Shown in pieces: positions 18,362 to 27,962 of a stretch of DNA of 64,000 nt. The notes below the pieces were generated by a model, which was given only the letters and a program-made list of their open reading frames with translations, searched no databases and was not told the DNA's origin. The number at the start of each line of letters is the position of its first letter. Within the stretch, counting starts at the first letter, position 1. The stretch lies in contig CAVPVX010000007.1 of assembly GCA_963709345.1 (NCBI GenBank), forward strand, positions 608,001-672,000. Direction: 5' to 3'. Both the position numbers and the translations under genes were made by a program. Source of the DNA: an uncultured Actinomycetes bacterium (GTDB taxonomy: Bacteria; Actinomycetota; Thermoleophilia; UBA2241).

Positions 18362-19816
18362 TCAGTCCGGCAGCAGCACGCTGAACGTCGAGCCCTCGCC
18401 TTCCACGCTGCGTACCTCGAAGCGGCCGCCGACGCGCTCGACGAGGCGCTTGACGATCGAGAGTCCGAGACCATTGCCCTCGAGCTCCCGCGTCTCGGCG
18501 CGCTTCTCGCGAAAGAACTCCTCGAAGAGGCGCGCCAGGTTGTCCGGCTTGATGCCGATGCCGGTGTCGACGACATCGAGACGCAGCCAGCCGTCGTCGA
18601 CGGCGCCGCGGATCGTCACAGCCCCGTCGTCACGATTGTACTTGACGGCGTTGCCGACGAGGTTGCTGAGGAGGAGCTGCAGATCGTCGGCCCGGATCAG
18701 TGCCGGGGGCAGGTCGGCGGCCAGTTCGGTCGTGACCGTCACGCCTCTCTGGGCGCCGCGCTCGCGAGCGAGCTCCACGACCTCCTCCAGGACGGGAGCG
18801 ACCGGGACGAGTTCGGGCTCCTCGCCCTCCGGGGCCTGCTCGCTTCGCGCCAGGGTGAGCAGGTCGCGGATGAGCTCGACCAGATTGTCGATGCGGTGAT
18901 CGGCGCGCGCGACCATCGGGAGGTAGGGATCGAGGTCCTCGCCCAGGCTCTTGTCGGTCACGACCTCGAGCAATCCCTTGATCGATCCGAGTGGGCTCTT
19001 GAGCTCGTGCACCATGGTGCGGATGAAGCGCTGCTTCTCCATCGCGAGGCGCCGGACTTCGCTGATGTCGCTGAGCGTCACGATGCGGCCGCGCGCCGCG
19101 CCGTTTTCGTCGCGGAAGGTGACGATGCTCGCCATCCACGCCTGCTCGCCGATCTCGAGCTGGCGCACGGTGCGGTCTTTCGCCGGCGCCTCAAGGTGCT
19201 CGCAGAGCGGCGCCAGGGCGCCGCCGCCAAGCAGTTCCCGCGCCGGCCGCATGAGCACCTCGTCGTCGCTCGACTCGAGCAGCTCCAGCATCGGCGGGTT
19301 GGCGAGCACGACGTCGCCGTCGCGGTTGACCACGAGCACCGCGTCGCGCAGCGAACTCACCAGGGAGTGCGTCTGCGTCTTCTCCTCGGCCAGAGCGAGC
19401 AGGCTGGCCTCGTGCTCGACGCGCAGGCGCTCCGCGTCGGCGCGCGCCTGCTTGTGCCGCAGCAACGTCGCCACGACTCCGAGAAGGTCGTCTGGGTTGA
19501 ACGGCTTGGGCAGGAAGAAGTCCACACCCTGCCGCGTCGCCGCGATCGCCGTGTCGATGTTCGCGTACGCGGTGATCATGCAGATCATGGCGTCGCAGCC
19601 GCGCTGCTTCATCGTCTGCAGCAGGCTGAGGCCGTCGGTGTCCGGCAGACGGTAGTCGAGCAGCGCGACATCGTAGTCGCGTTCCTCCAGACGCGCAAGC
19701 GCGCCGGCGCCGTCTTCGGCCTCGCCGACCTCGTACCCCTCCATCTCGAGGATGACGCGGATGCCGCTGCGCACGCCGTACTCATCGTCGACGATGAGGA
19801 TGCTGCCTTCGGGCAT
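18362..19816 (-). CDS. Hybrid signalling protein: REC - PAS - histidine kinase
   Basis: ILIVDDE / LLDYRLPD receiver; VLVVNRDG PAS; HELKSPL H-box; NAVKY, DTGIG and GLGL boxes. Confidence 0.92.
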   Translation of the reverse strand: MPEGSILIVDDEYGVRSGIRVILEMEGYEVGEAEDGAGALARLEERDYDVALLDYRLPDTDGLSLLQTMKQRGCDAMICMITAYANIDTAIAATRQGVDFFLPKPFNPDDLLGVVATLLRHKQARADAERLRVEHEASLLALAEEKTQTHSLVSSLRDAVLVVNRDGDVVLANPPMLELLESSDDEVLMRPARELLGGGALAPLCEHLEAPAKDRTVRQLEIGEQAWMASIVTFRDENGAARGRIVTLSDISEVRRLAMEKQRFIRTMVHELKSPLGSIKGLLEVVTDKSLGEDLDPYLPMVARADHRIDNLVELIRDLLTLARSEQAPEGEEPELVPVAPVLEEVVELARERGAQRGVTVTTELAADLPPALIRADDLQLLLSNLVGNAVKYNRDDGAVTIRGAVDDGWLRLDVVDTGIGIKPDNLARLFEEFFREKRAETRELEGNGLGLSIVKRLVERVGGRFEVRSVEGEGSTFSVLLPD

Positions 19817-19845
19817 CGTGATCCCTTCTCTCGTCGTCCCGGCCC

Positions 19846-20280
19846 TCAGGCCTTGGCGGGGTCGCTGGTCGGGTCAGCCTCGCCGAGGACCGCCAGCTCT
19901 TCGATGATCGTGAGCACCTGCTTGCCGGTCACCGGCTTGTCCAGAAAACGTGTGAGGCCCGACCACTCGCGCAGGCCGGCCGCCTCACCGTCGAATCGTG
20001 TCCCCGTCTCGGCCGCCACCCCGCTGAGCATGACTCGCGGGATATGGCGGAGCCGCGCGTCCTTGCCGATCTGGTAGCCCAGCCGGAAGCCATCGTCCAC
20101 CTTCTCCATCATGAGGTCGAGGAAGATGATGCTCGGGGTCTCGTCCTCGAGCAGCGCGAGCGCAGCCTCCGGCGACTCCGCCGTGAGGACCCGATAGCCT
20201 CGGGCCTCGAGGTAGACCTTCTTGCCGTTCAGGAAGTCCCGGTCGTCGTCGACGAAGAGGACGGTCATGGCTTCAGTCAT
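19846..20280 (-). CDS. Single-domain response regulator
   Basis: LFVDDD, FLDLMM and FLDKP motifs; no output domain. Confidence 0.9.
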   Translation of the reverse strand: MTEAMTVLFVDDDRDFLNGKKVYLEARGYRVLTAESPEAALALLEDETPSIIFLDLMMEKVDDGFRLGYQIGKDARLRHIPRVMLSGVAAETGTRFDGEAAGLREWSGLTRFLDKPVTGKQVLTIIEELAVLGEADPTSDPAKA

Positions 20281-20283
20281 GGC

Positions 20284-22386
20284 TCACTCTCCTTGCGGGG
20301 CCTCAGGGCCTTTCGGCCCGGCCCCGGCGTCATTGGGATCGCCGATCATCGTCTTCTGCCCGGTGGCATGCGTACGGGGCAGCTCCACATGGAACGTCGT
20401 ACCGCGATCGGTCTCGCTGTCGAACCAGATGGTCCCGTTGTGCATCTTGACGATCCCGTAGCTTATGGGCAGGCCGAGGCCGGTACCCTTGCCGATGCTC
20501 TTGGTGGTGAAGAAGGGCTGGAAGACCTTGTCGCGGGCGCTCTGCGGGATGCCCGCGCCCTCGTCCCGCACCGACAGGCGGATGCGCCCGGTCTCGGGCA
20601 CCTCGCAGGCACTGACGGACACGGCGCCGTCGCGGCCCTCCATCGCCTCGACGCCGTTCTTCACGAGATTGATGAGGACCTGCGTCATCTGATCGCGGTC
20701 GAGGTCTGCCCGCAGACCCGGGGCCACGTCGACGATCAGCTCGACCGCGTGTCCACTCGGCTCGATGGTCGCGATCGCAGAATCGACCGCCTGACGGACG
20801 ACGGCGAGCACGTCTTCGGTCTGCAGGTGCACGCGGCTCTGGCGGGCGAAGTCGAGCAGGTTACCGACGATCTTCTTGCAGCGCTCGCCCTCTTCCGCGA
20901 CGAGCTTCAGGTCGTGGTCGAGGTCGTCGCGGTCGTTCAGTTTCTTCCCGAGAATGTGGATGTAGAGCAGGATCGTGCTCAGCGGGTTGTTGAGCTCGTG
21001 GGCGACGCCGGCCGCCATCTGGCCCATGCTGGCCAGCTTCTCGGTGTTGATGATGTGCCGGTGCACGTCGCGCAGGTCGCTCCAGGGCACGTTCAGCTCG
21101 GTGCAGACGCGCTCCGCCTGGTCGATCATGAAGGGCAGGCACATCGCGTCCTCCGCCATGCCGCAGTGCACGGCGACGGCCTTGGCCCGGCAGGTCTGGT
21201 AGCCGCACGCGCCGCAGTTGAGCTCGTCTTCGGGGAAGAACTTGTTGGTGCGCGCGAGGATCTCGCGGATCTCGTCCTCGGTCGGCTCGGTGAGGCGCTG
21301 GTCGTCGCTCACGTAGGCGCGGCCGAGCGGCAGGCCGGCGAAGCCCGCACGTGCGTCGTCGATCGGCTCGTCCGCGGCGGCGTCCGCGGCTTCCTGCTCC
21401 CGCCGGCACTCCGCGACGTAGTCGCTCACGCGGCGCTTGCGCAAGAGGCCGGGTTCTGAGGAGTTGATGCCCGGCCCACAGTAGCACCCGCGACACATGA
21501 GAGCCTCGACGAGCAGAGCACGGTCGGTCTCGAGCTCGCCGAGGCTGTCGAGCACCGCGACGGTCTCGTCGTGACCGCTGACCACCAGCACGTCGGGGTC
21601 GAGGATGCCGCGGTCCATGTTGGCGGTCTCGAGCAGGCCGCCGGGCAGCGGGAAGACCCGCGCCCGCCCCGCAGCCGGCTCGTCCCACACGGCCGCCGCG
21701 GCCATCTCCGGGACGACACCCCGTTCGGCCAGCAGGCGGTGTGCCTCCTGGAGCGTCAGGACCTCGTCGATGACGTCCGGCAGCAGCTCGTCGTGGGCCT
21801 CGGCCTTCTTGGCGACGCACGGACCGACGAACACGCAGTTGACCTCGTCGCCGTGAAGACCCTTGACGGCCAGAGCCGCGGCGATCATCGGCGAGACGAT
21901 CGGCACCAGCCGGTCGACGAACTCGGGACGATACTTGCGCACGTACTCCGCCACGGCCGGGCAAGCGGTGGCGATATGGATCCCGGTCGGGTTGGCGGCG
22001 AGATACTCTTCGTAGGCGCGACTCACCAGGTCGGCGCCTTGAGCGACCTCGACGACGTAGTCGAAGCCCGCGGCCTTGAAGGCGCCGACGACCTGCTCCG
22101 GCGGCGCATCGAAGCCGGCGGGGAACGACGGCGCCAGCAGTGCCGCGACCGGTACGTCCTCCTCGAGGAGCCAGGATGCGCGTTCGAGGCCGCTCGCATA
22201 CGTCTTGGCGTTCTGCGAGCACACCAGCGTGCAGTTGCCGCAGGAGATGCAGCGCTCGTGGACCACGACAGCCTGCCCGTCCTCCACGCGGATCGCCTGG
22301 GCCGGGCAGTCGCGGACGCATGTGTAGCAGCGCCGGCAGTTCTGCTTGATCGTCCTGATGACGCCTTCCATGGGAGCCTCCGTCAC
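20284..22386 (-). CDS. Sensory [FeFe]-hydrogenase (group C-type) fused to a histidine kinase
   Basis: N-terminal 2x[4Fe-4S]; H-cluster-like motifs ATACP, GPCVAKKAE and EALMCRGC; FeS domain NCGACGYQTC..C; AHELNNPL H-box and HATPase (FFTTK, GTGLGL). Confidence 0.9.
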   Translation of the reverse strand: MTEAPMEGVIRTIKQNCRRCYTCVRDCPAQAIRVEDGQAVVVHERCISCGNCTLVCSQNAKTYASGLERASWLLEEDVPVAALLAPSFPAGFDAPPEQVVGAFKAAGFDYVVEVAQGADLVSRAYEEYLAANPTGIHIATACPAVAEYVRKYRPEFVDRLVPIVSPMIAAALAVKGLHGDEVNCVFVGPCVAKKAEAHDELLPDVIDEVLTLQEAHRLLAERGVVPEMAAAAVWDEPAAGRARVFPLPGGLLETANMDRGILDPDVLVVSGHDETVAVLDSLGELETDRALLVEALMCRGCYCGPGINSSEPGLLRKRRVSDYVAECRREQEAADAAADEPIDDARAGFAGLPLGRAYVSDDQRLTEPTEDEIREILARTNKFFPEDELNCGACGYQTCRAKAVAVHCGMAEDAMCLPFMIDQAERVCTELNVPWSDLRDVHRHIINTEKLASMGQMAAGVAHELNNPLSTILLYIHILGKKLNDRDDLDHDLKLVAEEGERCKKIVGNLLDFARQSRVHLQTEDVLAVVRQAVDSAIATIEPSGHAVELIVDVAPGLRADLDRDQMTQVLINLVKNGVEAMEGRDGAVSVSACEVPETGRIRLSVRDEGAGIPQSARDKVFQPFFTTKSIGKGTGLGLPISYGIVKMHNGTIWFDSETDRGTTFHVELPRTHATGQKTMIGDPNDAGAGPKGPEAPQGE

Positions 22387-24113
22387 ACTGCCGCCGTATC
22401 GTGCCCGCGGCGGCGGCTCGTGTAGCTGCGATGCAGGAGGCGATGCGAGACCTCGCTCAGCGGGCGCCCGAGGAGGCCCTCGTACAGCGCCCGCAGCTCG
22501 GCGTTCTCGTGCGAGCGCCGAGCCCGGGAGCGCCTGTCCACTTCGTAGAGGCGCTGCAGCCGCTCCTTGATCGCCGCGGCGTCGGTGTCGTAGGGCTGGC
22601 CGCCGCCGCCGATGCAGCCGCCGGGGCAGCTCATCACTTCGACGAAGTGCACCGGCGGATCGGCGCTCAACAGCTCGTCGAGGACGTCCTTGACGCGGCC
22701 GAGACCGTTGACGACGGCGAGGCCGAGCTCGGCCTCACCGGCGCTCACCGCGAACCGGCGCACGCCCTCGGAGCCGCGAGCCTCGCTCACCTTGGGGCCG
22801 CCGGCGAGCTCCTCGCCGGCGGCGAGCAGGTAGGCGGTCCGCAGCGCAGCCTCCATGACGCCGCCGCTGCCGGCGAAGAGGCGACCGGCGCCGCTCGCCT
22901 CGGAGAAGGGCGGGTCGAGCGGCTCCAGCTCGGTCGCGTGCGCGAAATCCACGCCGAACCGGCCCCAGAGGTGCTCCAGTTCACGCGTGGTGAGCACGTA
23001 GTCCACGTCACCGAGGTCTTGTGCCTCGAACTTCTTCGCCGTGCAGGGCATGATCGAGACGACCACGAGCTTGTCCCGGTCGACCCCCGCCCGATCGGGG
23101 TAGATCTCCTTGATCAGCGCGCCGGCCATCTGCTGCGGGCTCTTGCAGGTCGAGAGGTGCGGGATCAACTCCGGGTGGTGTGTCTCGACGAAGTGTACCC
23201 ACGCCGGCGAGCAGCTCGTGAACATCGGCAGCACGCCGCCGTTCTCGATGCGGTCCAGCAGCTCGCTGCCCTCTTCCATGATCGTGAGGTCGGCGGCGAA
23301 GCCGGTGTCGAAGACGGCGTCGAAGCCGACCCGCTTGAGGGAGGAGGCGAGGCGCTCCAGCATTGTGCGCACGCCCTCGCTCTTGCTGTGGCCTTCGAGA
23401 AGCGTCGCCGGCACGGCGGGCGCCACCTGGGCGACGACCACGGTGTCGGGATCCGCGAGCGCGTCGACCACCTCGTCGACCTGGTCGCGTTCGACGATGG
23501 CGCCGGTCGGGCAGACCCGGGCGCACTGACCGCAGAACACGCAGTCGCTGACGTTGAGTCCAAGGCTGAAGCCCGGCGCGACCCTGGTCTGGAAGCCACG
23601 CCCGACGTAGTCGATGGCGCCCACACCCTGGATGTCGTGGCAGACGGTGACGCAGCGGCCACAGAGGACGCACTTGTCGGGGTCGCGCCAGAGTGCCGGC
23701 GAGCTGATGTCCATGGGGTGATGCTTGACCGCCCCGACGTACCGGCGCCGGCGCACGCCGAGGTCGGCGGCGAGATCCGCGAGCTCGCAGTCGCCGCCTC
23801 GCGCGCAGGAGAGGCAGTCCTGCGGATGACTCGCGACCAGCAGTTCCAGGATCGCGCGCCGCGCCTTGAGCACGCGCGGCGTGTGCGTCTGGACGCTGAG
23901 GCCGTCGCGCGCCTCGAGGGTGCAGCTCGTCTGCAGGCGCGGAACGCCCTCGACCTCGACGATGCACAGGCGGCACGAGGCCGACGGTGACGGCGCCCAG
24001 TCAAGGGAACACAGGTGCGGGATCTCGATACCGGCGCGGCGGGCCACCTGCAGGACGGTCTCGCCCTCCGTCACCTCGATCTCTCTGCCGTTGATGGTGA
24101 TGCTCATGGTCAT
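22383..24113 (-). CDS. hydA: [FeFe]-hydrogenase catalytic subunit (group A3-type)
   Basis: [2Fe-2S], His-ligated 4Fe and 2x[4Fe-4S] domains; P1 FTSCSPAW, P2 MPCTAKKFE, P3 EVMSCPGGCIGGGGQP; start MTMSITING. Confidence 0.95.
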   Translation of the reverse strand: MTMSITINGREIEVTEGETVLQVARRAGIEIPHLCSLDWAPSPSASCRLCIVEVEGVPRLQTSCTLEARDGLSVQTHTPRVLKARRAILELLVASHPQDCLSCARGGDCELADLAADLGVRRRRYVGAVKHHPMDISSPALWRDPDKCVLCGRCVTVCHDIQGVGAIDYVGRGFQTRVAPGFSLGLNVSDCVFCGQCARVCPTGAIVERDQVDEVVDALADPDTVVVAQVAPAVPATLLEGHSKSEGVRTMLERLASSLKRVGFDAVFDTGFAADLTIMEEGSELLDRIENGGVLPMFTSCSPAWVHFVETHHPELIPHLSTCKSPQQMAGALIKEIYPDRAGVDRDKLVVVSIMPCTAKKFEAQDLGDVDYVLTTRELEHLWGRFGVDFAHATELEPLDPPFSEASGAGRLFAGSGGVMEAALRTAYLLAAGEELAGGPKVSEARGSEGVRRFAVSAGEAELGLAVVNGLGRVKDVLDELLSADPPVHFVEVMSCPGGCIGGGGQPYDTDAAAIKERLQRLYEVDRRSRARRSHENAELRALYEGLLGRPLSEVSHRLLHRSYTSRRRGHDTAAV

Positions 24114-24118
24114 TCCTC

Positions 24119-26113
24119 TCAGGCGACGGCCAGCACGGCCTGTTTGGGGCAGGCGTCGGCGCAGGCGCCGCAGCCGGTGCACCGGTCGACGATGATGGAG
24201 TGCGCGAACGTGCGCTTGCCGATGATCGCCCCCGACGGGCAGTTCCTGGCGCAAAGGGTGCAGCCGGTGCAGAGTTCGGGGTCGATGTCGTACACGCGCA
24301 GACCCTGGCAGGCGCCGGCCGGGCAGACACCCTCCATGATGTGCGCCTCGTACTCGTCGCGGAAGAAGCGCAGCGTGCTGAGCACGGGGTTCGCGGCCGA
24401 CTGGCCGAGGCCGCAGAGCGACGTCTCCCTGACGACCTCCGCCAGCTCCTCCAGATGGAGGATGCCGCGGAAGCGCTCCAGCCGGCGCAGATCGTCGCCG
24501 ACGGGGCGCTCGGTGATCTCGGTGAGGATCTCGAGCATGCGCGTCGTACCCTCGCGACACGGGGTGCACTTGCCACAGCTCTCGTTGCGGATGAACCCAA
24601 TGAAGAACTTCGCAACGTCGACCATGCAGGAACGCTCGTCCATGACGACCATGCCGCCGGAGCCCATCATCGCGCCGAGCTCCTGGAGTGTCCCGTAGTC
24701 GGTGGCGACGTCGAGCAGATCGTCGGGGATGCAGCCGCCGCTCGGGCCGCCGATCTGGACGGCCTTGATGTGGTGGCCGGCGGGAGCGCCGCCGCCGATG
24801 TCGTAGACGACCTCGCGCAGCGGGACGCCGACCGGGACCTCGACGAGGCCCGTGTTGCGCACGCGGCCGCTGAGCGCGAAGACCTTGGTGCCGGCCGCGT
24901 CGCCGCGGCCGAGGCCCGCGAACCACTCGGCGCCGCCGTTCAGGACGGCCGGGATGTTGGCCAGCGTCTCGACGTTGTTGAGCACGGTCGGGCAGCCGTG
25001 CAGACCGGAGACCGCCGGGTAGGGCGGGCGGGGACGGGGCATGCCGCGCCCACCCTCGATGCTCGCCAGGATCGCCGTCTCCTCGCCGCAGACGAAGGCA
25101 CCGGCGCCCATCTTGATGGTGATGTCGAAGTCGACGAGGCTGCCGAGGATGTTCTTGCCGAGCAGCCCGGCGGCGCGGCACTGCTCGATCGCGTCGCGCA
25201 GCCGCTCTACCGCGAGTGGGTACTCGGCGCGACAGTACACATAGCCCCTGGTCGCGTTGATCGCGTAGGCGGCGACGATCATGCCCTCGACCACCCGGAA
25301 CGGGTCGCTCTCGAGTACGGCGCGGTCCATGAATGCGCCGGGATCGCCCTCGTCGGCGTTGCAGATCAGGTACTTCTGCGCCTTCGGCTGGTCGAGCGCG
25401 ACCTGCCACTTCCGCCCGGTCGGGAAGCCGGCGCCGCCACGCCCGCGGAGGCCGGAGGCGGTGACCTCGTCGCAGACCTCCTGCGGGGTCATCGTCGCCA
25501 GCGCCTTGGCGGCGGCGCGGAAGCCGCCGGCCGCGAGCGCTGCGTCGAGGCTCGCCGGGTCGACGACGCCGCAGTTCTCGAGCACCACCTTCGTCTGGCG
25601 CGCGAAGAACGGGGTCTCGGCGATGGGCGGTACGTCACGGTAGAGCCCGTCGGGATCGTCGTAGCGCCCGAGAAGGAAGCGGTTGCGCAGCTCCCCCCGC
25701 CCGAACACGGCCTCCAGGAACTCGTCGGCGGAGTCGGGACCGAGGTCGCAGTAGCTCAGTCGCACGCCTTCCTCGGTGACCACGTCGACGAAGACCTCGC
25801 GCTGACAGTAGCCGACGCAGCCGGTCTCGAGGATCGGCACGCTGAGCCCGCAGCGCTCGAAGTAGGCCTTCATCTTCGCGATCACCGTGGTCGCGCCGTT
25901 GGCGCGCCCGCAGGTGCCGGCACCGACGAAGACGACCATGCCGTCGCCGCCGAGCCGGGCGCGTGCGAGGCGCCGGGCGCGCTTCGAAGCACATGCCTCG
26001 TCGTCGTGACAGACGGGGCCGCGCTCGATGCAGGCGACCAGGTCGGAGCACGGCGTGGACGGCGCGTGCGTGCAACGGTCGCAGCAGGGCTCCGTGAGCA
26101 GGCTCTCGTTCAT
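24119..26113 (-). CDS. hydB: NuoF-like FMN/NADH-binding hydrogenase beta subunit
   Basis: GLRGRGGAGFPTG, CNADEGDPGAFMDR, FVCGEETA, GGPSGG and ESCGKCTPCREG motifs; C-terminal 2x[4Fe-4S]. Confidence 0.95.
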   Translation of the reverse strand: MNESLLTEPCCDRCTHAPSTPCSDLVACIERGPVCHDDEACASKRARRLARARLGGDGMVVFVGAGTCGRANGATTVIAKMKAYFERCGLSVPILETGCVGYCQREVFVDVVTEEGVRLSYCDLGPDSADEFLEAVFGRGELRNRFLLGRYDDPDGLYRDVPPIAETPFFARQTKVVLENCGVVDPASLDAALAAGGFRAAAKALATMTPQEVCDEVTASGLRGRGGAGFPTGRKWQVALDQPKAQKYLICNADEGDPGAFMDRAVLESDPFRVVEGMIVAAYAINATRGYVYCRAEYPLAVERLRDAIEQCRAAGLLGKNILGSLVDFDITIKMGAGAFVCGEETAILASIEGGRGMPRPRPPYPAVSGLHGCPTVLNNVETLANIPAVLNGGAEWFAGLGRGDAAGTKVFALSGRVRNTGLVEVPVGVPLREVVYDIGGGAPAGHHIKAVQIGGPSGGCIPDDLLDVATDYGTLQELGAMMGSGGMVVMDERSCMVDVAKFFIGFIRNESCGKCTPCREGTTRMLEILTEITERPVGDDLRRLERFRGILHLEELAEVVRETSLCGLGQSAANPVLSTLRFFRDEYEAHIMEGVCPAGACQGLRVYDIDPELCTGCTLCARNCPSGAIIGKRTFAHSIIVDRCTGCGACADACPKQAVLAVA

Positions 26114-26586: not shown

Positions 26587-27012
26587 TCACGCTTCCTTGG
26601 TCGCCGCGGGCGTGTCGGCGTCGGCGAGCAGCGCGGCGATGGCGTCGGCGAGGTCGGCCAGCTTGACCGGCTTCTCGAAGAACTTGGCGGCCGGCCACTC
26701 GCGGTACATCATCGGCTCGAAGATGTGGGTCTTGGTCTCGAGTTCCTTGGTGAAACCGCTCATGATGATCACCGGGATAGCCTCGGTCTCGGGGTCGTCG
26801 CGGAGCTTGTAGGCGACGTTGAAGCCGTCGGTGTCGTAGTCCATCATGATGTCGAGCACGACGAGGTCGGGCCGCTGCTTCTTCAGTTGCTCTCGCGCCT
26901 CGATGCCGCTGTGGGCCGTGTCCACGGTGTAGCCGCGGGCCTCCAGGAACGCCTTGACGGACGTCACCAGGTCGCGGTCGTCGTCGACCATCAGGATGCG
27001 CTTGGCCTTCAC
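26587..27012 (-). CDS. Single-domain response regulator
   Basis: ILMVDDD, VLDIMM and FEKP motifs; GTG start after AAGGAGGAG. Confidence 0.9.
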   Translation of the reverse strand: MKAKRILMVDDDRDLVTSVKAFLEARGYTVDTAHSGIEAREQLKKQRPDLVVLDIMMDYDTDGFNVAYKLRDDPETEAIPVIIMSGFTKELETKTHIFEPMMYREWPAAKFFEKPVKLADLADAIAALLADADTPAATKEA

Positions 27013-27080: not shown

Positions 27081-27098
27081 CAGTGAAACTGTTCACAG
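27081..27098. promoter_or_regulatory. Rex operator upstream of the response regulator-hydCBA operon
   Basis: CAGTGAA-ACTG-TTCACAG versus the Rex consensus TTGTGAA-N4-TTCACAA. Confidence 0.75.
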
Positions 27099-27926: not shown

Positions 27927-27962
27927 AGCTGTGACTCTATTCACAGCTCTACGCGCTGTCAA
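27927..27962 (-). promoter_or_regulatory. rex promoter (TTGACA-17-TAGAGT) with a Rex operator over the -10
   Basis: -35 at 27962-27957 and -10 at 27939-27934; palindrome AGCTGTGA-ctctat-TCACAGCT at 27927-27948. Confidence 0.82.

Follow-up and report, generated by a model that had tools for sequence, protein, structure and literature searches.

A putative H2- or redox-gated [FeFe]-hydrogenase kinase and its proposed two-kinase, three-receiver circuit in a Rex-associated hydrogenase operon of an uncultured Thermoleophilia bacterium

How a bacterium equipped with [FeFe]-hydrogenases could turn the presence of H2 into a phosphorylation signal, and where such a signal would end, are the questions raised by a gene cluster in the genome of an uncultured actinomycete of the class Thermoleophilia (assembly GCA_963709345.1, contig CAVPVX010000007.1, positions 608,001 to 672,000). 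This whole stretch of 64,000 nucleotides, hereafter the window, has a G+C content of ~70% and carries on its minus strand the gene row rex, a lone receiver (REC) gene named RECa, hydC, hydB, hydA, hydS-HK, a second lone receiver gene (RECb) and a gene for a REC-PAS-HisKA-HATPase kinase (Table 1). The product of hydS-HK joins a sensory-type hydrogenase module to a histidine kinase, and it probably, though by no means certainly, acts as a soluble dimeric H2- or redox-gated sensor kinase heading a two-kinase, three-receiver circuit, with Rex setting transcription separately.

The first-pass annotation had described HydS-HK as a 700-aa fusion of ferredoxin, H-cluster, FeS and HisKA/HATPase parts, and this description was borne out by five Pfam domains on the open reading frame 20284-22386(-), namely, in the numbering of that frame, Fer4 dicluster at aa 14-60 (E 5e-7), Fe_hyd_lg_C at aa 80-305 (E 8e-35), FeS PF04060 at aa 389-418 (E 3e-7), HisKA at 454-516 (E 7e-15) and HATPase_c at 563-672 (E 2e-26). 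The count of 700 aa uses an upstream GTG, whereas the database copy starts at ATG 22371 and has 695 aa. No NCBIfam model scored above cut-off for the protein, and no PAS domain was matched by Pfam at E 0.01; HisKA begins ~40 residues beyond the last cluster Cys. For the histidine kinase, the best solved relative was ZraS (E 3e-33). Moreover, three deviations from the textbook H-cluster motifs, noticed at first reading, were reproduced in HMMER alignments to solved hydrogenases: ATACP aligned on TSCCP, with Ala in place of the proton-relay Cys; GPCVAKKAE aligned on MPCTAKKFE, with GPC for MPC; and LMC-RGC aligned on MTCPEGC with a one-residue gap. In the numbering of CpI, the proton-relay Cys is C299 and the GPC position is Met353 (PMC8163306). 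The last two H-cluster Cys of HydS-HK are spaced CxxC and not CxxxC, and all four Cys are present. In an alignment of 24 kinase-fused relatives, the eight ferredoxin Cys, the L2 Cys and Glu, both L3 Cys and the four C-terminal Cys were invariant (24/24), as were H458, N568/N572, D603-G605-G607 and G629-G631-G633; the L1 Cys was present in 23 of the 24, and the residue preceding it was Cys in none.

An AlphaFold2 model of HydS-HK, built on 24 relatives, reached a mean pLDDT (predicted agreement in the local distance difference test) of 83.5, with values mostly >90 over aa 1-420. Its sensor half matched the Desulfovibrio [FeFe]-hydrogenase (DdH) with a Foldseek template modelling (TM) score of 0.68 and a root-mean-square deviation of 3.6 A over ~370 columns, and its C-terminal half matched the ZraS kinase core with a TM of 0.76. 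Since the single hydrophobic window above 1.6 (Kyte-Doolittle average over 19 residues, KD19, of 1.75 at aa 151-169) lies within the well-modelled H-domain core, HydS-HK is predicted to be soluble. The motifs, the kinase boxes and the hydropathy agreed with the original description of a cytoplasmic protein that couples a sensory-type (group C-like) [FeFe]-hydrogenase module to a motif-complete histidine kinase.

To characterize the connection between the two halves, the distance in residues that separates the last cluster Cys from the phospho-accepting His was measured wherever a kinase directly follows the module. The 28 representatives gave distances of 33 (2 proteins), 40 (4), 47 (15), 54 (4), 68 (1), 48 (1) and 49 (1) residues, which places 26 of them in one class modulo 7, together with 145 of the 147 stored proteins that have both motifs; many of these 147 are close kin, and the five distinct lengths weigh more than the counts. 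These steps of seven residues therefore point to a coiled-coil transmitter. In the AlphaFold2 model, helices 412-425 and 430-477 begin directly after Cys411, and the linker would fit a coiled coil that continues from the C-terminal cluster domain into the helix of the dimerization and histidine phosphotransfer (DHp) domain. Linkers in engineered PAS-kinases are heptad-dependent.

The range of outputs to which the module is attached was also surveyed. The whole HydS-HK sequence has thousands of database relatives; the best 120 all have one four-domain core in common, and several carry the name Thermoleophilia. Among 1.84 billion cluster representatives, the sensor part (435 aa) retrieved 4378 at E <= 1e-3, of which 765 at E <= 1e-30. 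From the best 150 sensor-part representatives, 21 shorter than 540 aa and P0211, which has no C-terminal motif, were dropped, and the remaining 128 were labelled by local phmmer with domain probes (one label came from Pfam) as 43 kinase, 14 sigma54-activator and 3 GGDEF fusions and 68 other tails. Pfam analysis of 20 of the 128 revealed direct sigma54 AAA+/HTH in 9, PAS-sigma54 in 3, GGDEF in 2, and GGDEF-HD, a HisKA_3 kinase, a PAS kinase and a GAF-GAF kinase in one each, with no C-terminal match at E 1e-6 in the other 2. One further kinase fusion was named Armatimonadota and one sigma54 fusion Bacillota. The relatives P0140, P0156, P0153, P0139, P0260, P0203 and P0161 exemplify fusions to sigma54 AAA+/HTH, GGDEF (one with an HD-GYP-type HD) and methyl-accepting chemotaxis protein (MCP) signalling domains.

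A FastTree phylogeny of the sensor parts of the 128 representatives, the window protein and its paralog, rooted on three HydA paralogs, covered the query-nearest representatives and carried local Shimodaira-Hasegawa-like support only. The first of its two clades (63 rows, support 89) consisted entirely of tails, and Pfam on 11 tails recognized PAS in 5 of the 6 sampled there, four of them below the Pfam cut-off scores. The second clade (67 rows, support 95) comprised 45 kinase, 14 sigma54-activator and 3 GGDEF fusions and 5 others, two of them MCP, and its sampled tails yielded 2 MCP-signal fusions, 1 PAS and 2 proteins without match. The window protein and its paralog were placed in a 21-row subclade with 20 kinases (support 97). 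The short CxxC form of L3 was found in 53 of 60 output-fused proteins (4 were ambiguous, CCxGC, and 3 long) versus 5 of 68 PAS-type or other tails; by these features the output-fused clade looks like HydDB C1/C2, and the PAS clade like C3 or M2f. That [FeFe]-hydrogenases of groups C and D are sensors is to date a putative assignment, resting mainly on the PAS domain and low activity (PMC8924675, PMC10055695). Free exchange of outputs on one conserved module is normal for a sensory input domain, and in our view this swapping argues, on comparative grounds, more strongly for a sensory role than does the PAS domain to which the literature appeals.

The signalling genes were not restricted to the window. 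Six Fe_hyd_lg_C matches were found in the genome, all on contig C7, where a second hydrogenase island (G000:C7:295000-320500; L007, L008) carries a paralogous HydS-HK cassette and two more HydABC-type sets. Its order is rex, a HATPase_c_2-Fer4-truncated H-domain-FeS protein, a PHP protein, hydC, a hydB-GltD fusion, hydA, a lone REC, the HydS-HK paralog (684 aa, 45% identity over the sensor part), a REC-HK, a lone REC, hydC, hydB, hydA, a GAF kinase, hydG, a lyase, hydF and hydE. The signalling cassette is thus present twice in the genome, each time beside hydrogenase genes. Because hydE (298.5 bits against a cut-off of 254.6), hydF and hydG are encoded, the organism can, as far as gene content tells, make H-clusters. 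Two further observations were made in this island. The 1017-aa HydB is fused to a GltD-like NAD(P)H/FAD domain, and the gene L007:1563-3131 (+) encodes a 522-aa protein composed of an anti-sigma-type HATPase_c_2 (SpoIIAB-like), a Fer4 dicluster, the first ~100 positions of the H-domain and a C-terminal FeS motif. This gene, which is followed by that of the PHP-domain protein, is conserved in 10/10 second-type loci, and its product may represent one more sensor, degenerate and belonging to a different type of signalling.

Among relatives, the sensor part was present in 22 of the 24 genomes from the same genus and, of the 16 from other families of the class, in 1; 15 of these 40 relatives had no Fe_hyd_lg_C match, and two had a catalytic-type match and no sensor match, in genomes 83% and 98% complete. 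According to tblastn maps, the window-type order rex-RECa-hydCBA-hydS/HK-RECb-REC/PAS/HK was kept in 7/7 same-genus loci, two of them with broken matches in hydB or the last kinase, and the second-locus order in 10/10, one of them cut at a contig end. A locus from another family of the class (L096, G027:C1:112200-132100) has the order rex-RECa-hydS/HK-RECb-REC/PAS/HK without hydCBA. Since RECa and hydS/HK are kept there with no hydCBA between them, RECa travels with the signalling genes and not with the enzyme genes.

Outside the phylum, 80 loci were fetched by peptide patterns within the kinase, of which 75 were ordinary kinases and five were full-length (L009-L012 and L029; Pfam was run on L009, L012 and L029, and L010 and L011 were mapped by tblastn only). 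The three-gene core of HydS-HK, lone REC and REC-HK was found in all five, which belong to three other phyla (Ignavibacteriota, Bacteroidales and Bacillota loci). The Melioribacteraceae (L009) and Stygiobacter (L011) loci read hydCBA-hydS/HK-REC-REC/HK-REC-hydCBA'-kinase; the Ignavibacteriae locus L010 reads hydCBA-hydS/HK-REC-REC/HK, with a REC-hydC pair on the other side; the Bacteroidales locus reads hydCBA-hydS/HK-REC-REC/HK-rex-...-hydG; and a Bacillota metagenome-assembled genome (L029) has hydS/HK-REC-REC/HK alone. A proteomics text on Melioribacter roseus assigns the tags MROS_2480-2482 and 2487-2488 to [FeFe]-hydrogenase and leaves the four tags between them unnamed (PMC5492636). By analogy with L009, these tags may be the HydS-HK cassette, which would provide a cultured host, and related cassettes in Melioribacteraceae-type genomes may permit genetics in cultured relatives.

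The neighbours of hydS-HK were as first described, with one lone receiver and the REC-PAS kinase after it and another lone receiver before hydC. The acidic pair, the phospho-Asp and the Lys are intact in all six REC domains of both loci. The four lone receivers (26587-27012 and 19846-20280 in the window, L007:10736-11143 and L007:14760-15134) share the motif LDxMMxxxxDGF and a 7-10-residue insertion ahead of the conserved Lys, and scored 100-217 bits against their own profile, on which every other receiver in the genome reached at most 76; by these marks they form a subfamily of their own that, in the source genome, is confined to the two hydrogenase loci. All receivers in both loci and in L009, L012 and L029 are either lone or N-terminal to a kinase. 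Pfam detected no DNA-binding response regulator in the operon, the paralogous locus or these three other-phylum loci, and the tblastn maps of 18 relatives' loci contained no unassigned gap suggesting one.

The initial interpretation of these genes as a multi-step phosphorelay was not borne out as worded. Pfam found no HPt (histidine phosphotransfer) or other phosphotransfer protein in either locus, in a search whose HPt model, PF01627, would miss Spo0B-like proteins; in the genome as a whole, the one Pfam match to HPt lies on contig C11, and the second kinase carries its REC at the N-terminus, which is an input position. As the strict label is therefore unsupported, the circuit is better described as two kinases and three receivers than as a classical phosphorelay. 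Sigma54 activators were considered as partners of the NtrC-family-type kinase and rejected: the best PF00158 match reached 31.8 bits, and the search also matched all 14 control genomes.

The first-pass claim that the system has no DNA-binding output held for response regulators in the loci examined but overlooked that the cluster is headed by rex with two operator-like palindromes. NCBIfam Rex models scored above cut-off for the window rex, for example NF003995 with 201.9 bits versus a cut-off of 126. The pattern TGTGAN6TCACA, the published Rex operator core, matched three times in the 64 kb versus 0.73 expected. Two of the three matches lie within 900 bp, at the rex promoter and ahead of RECa, and the perfect palindrome overlaps the -10 element of the region's only promoter-like site. 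Because a Rex gene and two operator-like palindromes occupy the operon head, transcription of the operon is probably under NADH/NAD+ control, with the two-component genes as an additional layer. A predicted complex of a Rex dimer with RECa gave no support, and this result counts neither for nor against.

In the circuit that we consider probable, the input would be formed by a pair of N-terminal [4Fe-4S] clusters, an H-cluster pocket that lacks the proton-relay Cys and a C-terminal [4Fe-4S] site. H2 would react slowly at the H-cluster, and the resulting redox or conformational state would be passed through the C-terminal cluster domain and the continuous coiled-coil helix to His458, toggling HydS-HK between kinase and phosphatase activity. 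The phosphoryl group would then be transferred to the neighbouring receivers, the likeliest first acceptor being the N-terminal REC of the REC-PAS kinase, whose PAS domain would add a second signal. This second, PhoR-like kinase would then charge the two lone receivers, which would be the end points and act by protein contact and not by DNA binding, and operon transcription would be set separately by Rex, i.e. by NADH/NAD+. We infer that H2 is the ligand, in which order phosphotransfer runs and what the lone receivers act upon; that HydS-HK would first address the NtrC-like REC of the second kinase is suggested by its HExxNPL-type H-box and by the look of that receiver.

Several points weigh against this circuit. 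No biochemical study of the kinase-fused clade was found in the open-access literature, and the L3 loop of the clade is one residue shorter between its two cluster Cys. The authors of PMC11406978 hardly found H-cluster motifs in their group C1 proteins, doubted an H-cluster there and left H2 sensing open. The C-terminal cluster of the HydS of Thermoanaerobacter mathranii (TamHydS) was not reduced by H2 (PMC13104023), so that a simple switch in which the C-terminal cluster is reduced is doubtful. The phosphotransfer order was drawn from the kinship of kinase and receiver types as judged by eye, and the relatives used for synteny are close kin, their counts being non-independent.

Redox state alone is the main rival to H2 as the ligand. 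The H-domain would then be a relic scaffold without a [2Fe] subsite, and the kinase would read the reduction of its [4Fe-4S] clusters, which the ferredoxin pool or damage by O2 would determine. NreB, an Fe-S based kinase, works in much this way. Such a sensor, which we regard as possible but unlikely, would agree with the L3 motif shortened across the clade, with the twelve conserved Cys for three [4Fe-4S] clusters that flank the H-domain, with a locus whose tuning to redox state is shown by the presence of Rex in the same cluster, and with the failure of motif searches on group C1 (PMC11406978). However, a mere scaffold would not require the conservation that is observed: the four H-cluster Cys positions are strictly or nearly strictly kept in 24 of 24 diverse relatives, and likewise conserved are the Pro that follows the L1 Cys and, within PCxxKxxE, the Lys and the Glu. 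Moreover, maturases are encoded in the genome, and hydrogenase genes adjoin the module at both of its loci here as well as at the Ignavibacteriota and Bacteroidales loci.

It is decidedly unlikely that the module is a fourth HydABC subunit, docking on the trimeric hydrogenase and swapping electrons with it while the kinase reports turnover or flux and not free H2. Although hydS-HK begins 11 bp after hydA in one predicted operon, its N-terminal ferredoxin domain is typical of electron entry and group C3 proteins are given in PMC11406978 as a 'T' subunit of some bifurcating enzymes, the cassette occurs without adjacent hydCBA in L096 and in the Bacillota locus L029, and its outputs are swapped freely, as in stand-alone sensors. 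An inert sensor half, fused as an evolutionary leftover to a kinase that only its partners would drive, be they the lone receivers or the second kinase, is scarcely credible: direct evidence of a ligand response is lacking for every member, but the reading frame is intact, with a G+C content at third codon positions (GC3) of 0.90 in a 70% GC genome, conservation is strong across 5 phyla, and the linker keeps its heptad register across fusions.

A broader proposal, which we rate as quite unlikely, is that the hydrogenase module of this clade would serve as a general plug-in H2 input for kinases, sigma54 activators, cyclases and chemoreceptor-type outputs through one heptad helix, and that the lone receivers found only in hydrogenase loci would act post-translationally, e.g. 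on HydABC or Rex. If this were true, the system would combine H2 pressure with the NADH/NAD+ ratio, and no DNA-binding response regulator would take part.

As for the layout of the locus (Table 1), the gaps from RECa through the last kinase gene measure only 2-29 bp or are overlaps, and these seven genes look for this reason like one predicted operon. The minus-strand open reading frames of the gene row have GC3 values of 0.85-0.93, and a convergent arginase-family gene lies beyond the REC-PAS kinase gene.

Table 1. Features of the rex-hyd locus in the window; residue numbers in the HydS-HK feature rows refer to the 695-aa protein that starts at ATG 22371.
Feature	Position	Strand	Basis or remark
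Promoter-like site TTGACA-17-TAGAGT ahead of rex	27934..27962	-	-10 overlapped by the perfect Rex-type palindrome
Perfect Rex-type palindrome TGTGAATAGAGTCACA	27930-27945	-	match to TGTGAN6TCACA
rex, NADH/NAD+ redox-sensing transcriptional repressor, 251 aa	27144..27899	-	Pfam Put_DNA-bind_N + CoA_binding; NCBIfam
Second Rex-operator-like palindrome TGTGAACAGTTTCACT, 1 mismatch	27082..27097	-	inside the 131-bp rex-RECa gap
RECa, lone receiver, 141 aa, GTG start after AAGGAGGA, first operon gene	26587..27012	-	Pfam
hydC, NuoE-like [2Fe-2S] subunit, 157 aa	26110..26583	-	Pfam, NCBIfam
hydB, NuoF-like FMN/NADH subunit, C-terminal 2x[4Fe-4S]; ATG overlaps hydC stop	24119..26113	-	
hydA, group A trimeric-type catalytic subunit, 576 aa, L1 motif FTSCSPAW	22383..24113	-	
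hydS-HK, sensory-type hydrogenase module + histidine kinase, 695 aa	20284..22371	-	alternative GTG start 22386
HydS-HK: N-terminal ferredoxin part, two CxxCxxCxxxC motifs, aa 12-51	22219..22338	-	
HydS-HK: H-domain aa 75-300; ATACP 134-138, GPCVAKKAE 183-191, CRGC 293-296	21472..22149	-	
HydS-HK: C-terminal Cx2Cx4Cx16C cluster motif, aa 386-411	21139..21216	-	motif definition from PMC8163306
HydS-HK: predicted signalling helix aa 412-457, last cluster Cys to phospho-accepting His458 (20998-21000)	21001..21138	-	
HydS-HK: HisKA aa 449-511 + HATPase_c aa 558-667, H/N/G1/F/G2 boxes	20371..21027	-	
RECb, lone receiver, 144 aa, 3 bp past hydS-HK	19846..20280	-	
REC-PAS-HisKA-HATPase kinase, 484 aa, final operon gene	18362..19816	-	

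The catalytic subunits showed a peculiarity of their own. All three catalytic-type HydA paralogs (22383-24113; L007:8827-10599; L007:16857-18794) have TSCSP or SSCSP versus the textbook L1 motif TSCCP, and SCSP was found in 29 of 33 L1 words of the fetched loci; the second HydA of two Ignavibacteriota loci likewise has SCSP, and one ortholog (L090) has SCCP. Ser thereby stands where the textbook motif has the [4Fe-4S]H ligand Cys (C300). The motif TSCSPGW is also recorded in a Melainabacteria paper (PMC3787301). Three further TSCCP/SSCSP words in the genome were discarded as off-frame chance matches in short stop-to-stop frames.

With respect to known systems, HydDB lists [FeFe] group C1 as 'histidine kinase-linked (putative)' (PMC5037454), and a 2024 study reports a HATPase_c domain within group C1 proteins of Hydrogenedentota, 21 of 53 of which adjoin group A3 genes (PMC11406978). 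HydS-HK matches this kinase-linked architecture, membership being judged from the architecture and the sensor-part tree. Having no PAS domain, it does not seem to be a member of M2f; it fits the kinase-linked subgroup of group C and is filed here as a putative member of an already listed, biochemically untested group. In the open-access literature searched, the direct fusion through a heptad helix, the REC/REC-HK cassette and the link to Rex were not described, and no paper was found on sigma54- and GGDEF-fused HydS; for output-fused HydS, the HydDB listing and the Hydrogenedentota observation were the sole mentions that turned up.

Reviews and a 2024 Cell paper continue to treat the PAS fusion as the defining mark of group C and name as the only characterised enzymes TamHydS and the HydS of Thermotoga maritima, TmHydS (PMC8924675, PMC11216029), both of which are described in PMC8163306 as low-activity putative sensors. 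TmHydS (group C, M2f) resembles HydS-HK in its 2x[4Fe-4S] N-terminus, in the absence of the C299 relay, in the replacement of Met353 by Gly and in the C-terminal Cx2Cx4Cx16C, which is described for groups C and D (PMC8163306). Unlike HydS-HK, in which HisKA/HATPase follow directly, TmHydS ends in PAS with no enzymatic output; PAS-type relatives keep the normal CxxxC in L3, whereas the HydS-HK clade has CxxC, and the Met497 position is Leu in HydS-HK and Ser in TmHydS. Similarly, TamHydS (group D, M2e) is a putative sensor that shares with HydS-HK the clusters at both termini and Leu at Met497, and its gene, like hydS-HK, adjoins a trimeric group A hydrogenase (PMC8163306); unlike HydS-HK, it lacks a fused output domain, and its residue at Met353 is Ser instead of Gly.

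The latest TamHydS study calls finding the interaction partner critical (PMC13104023). In HydS-HK the partner is covalently attached, and autophosphorylation would be a direct read-out of H2 sensing; this built-in kinase read-out makes the long-standing question of H2 sensing and its transmission directly testable, and the heptad-spaced linker offers a testable model of the latter. Taken with Rex, the conserved circuit of four genes, which has no DNA-binding output, suggests a way in which fermenters may control bifurcating hydrogenases by H2 pressure and NADH load jointly.

In the [NiFe] regulatory systems HoxBC-HoxJ-HoxA and HupUV-HupT-HupR (HydDB group 2b), a low-activity hydrogenase signals through a histidine kinase to hydrogenase genes. 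These systems are alike in outline, but their metal site and fold are unrelated, and their sensor and kinase are separate proteins; they end on an NtrC-type DNA-binding regulator, whereas the HydS-HK genome has no true sigma54 activator, 31.8 bits being the best match, and its receivers are without output domain. Hydrogenase operons of anaerobes are reportedly controlled by Rex, in a regulon that Ravcheev and co-workers are said to have described in 2012. The window locus is alike in having rex beside hyd genes and TGTGA-N6-TCACA at promoter positions, and differs in that Rex is joined to a dedicated two-kinase circuit in the same predicted operon. Multi-kinase networks ending on lone receivers are found in Myxococcus RedCDEF and Caulobacter DivJ/PleC-DivK, which likewise have two kinases, several receivers and no DNA-binding output, and whose lone receivers act by contact; the HydS-HK circuit shares with them no sequence kinship beyond the common domains and differs in having a hydrogenase module as its input.

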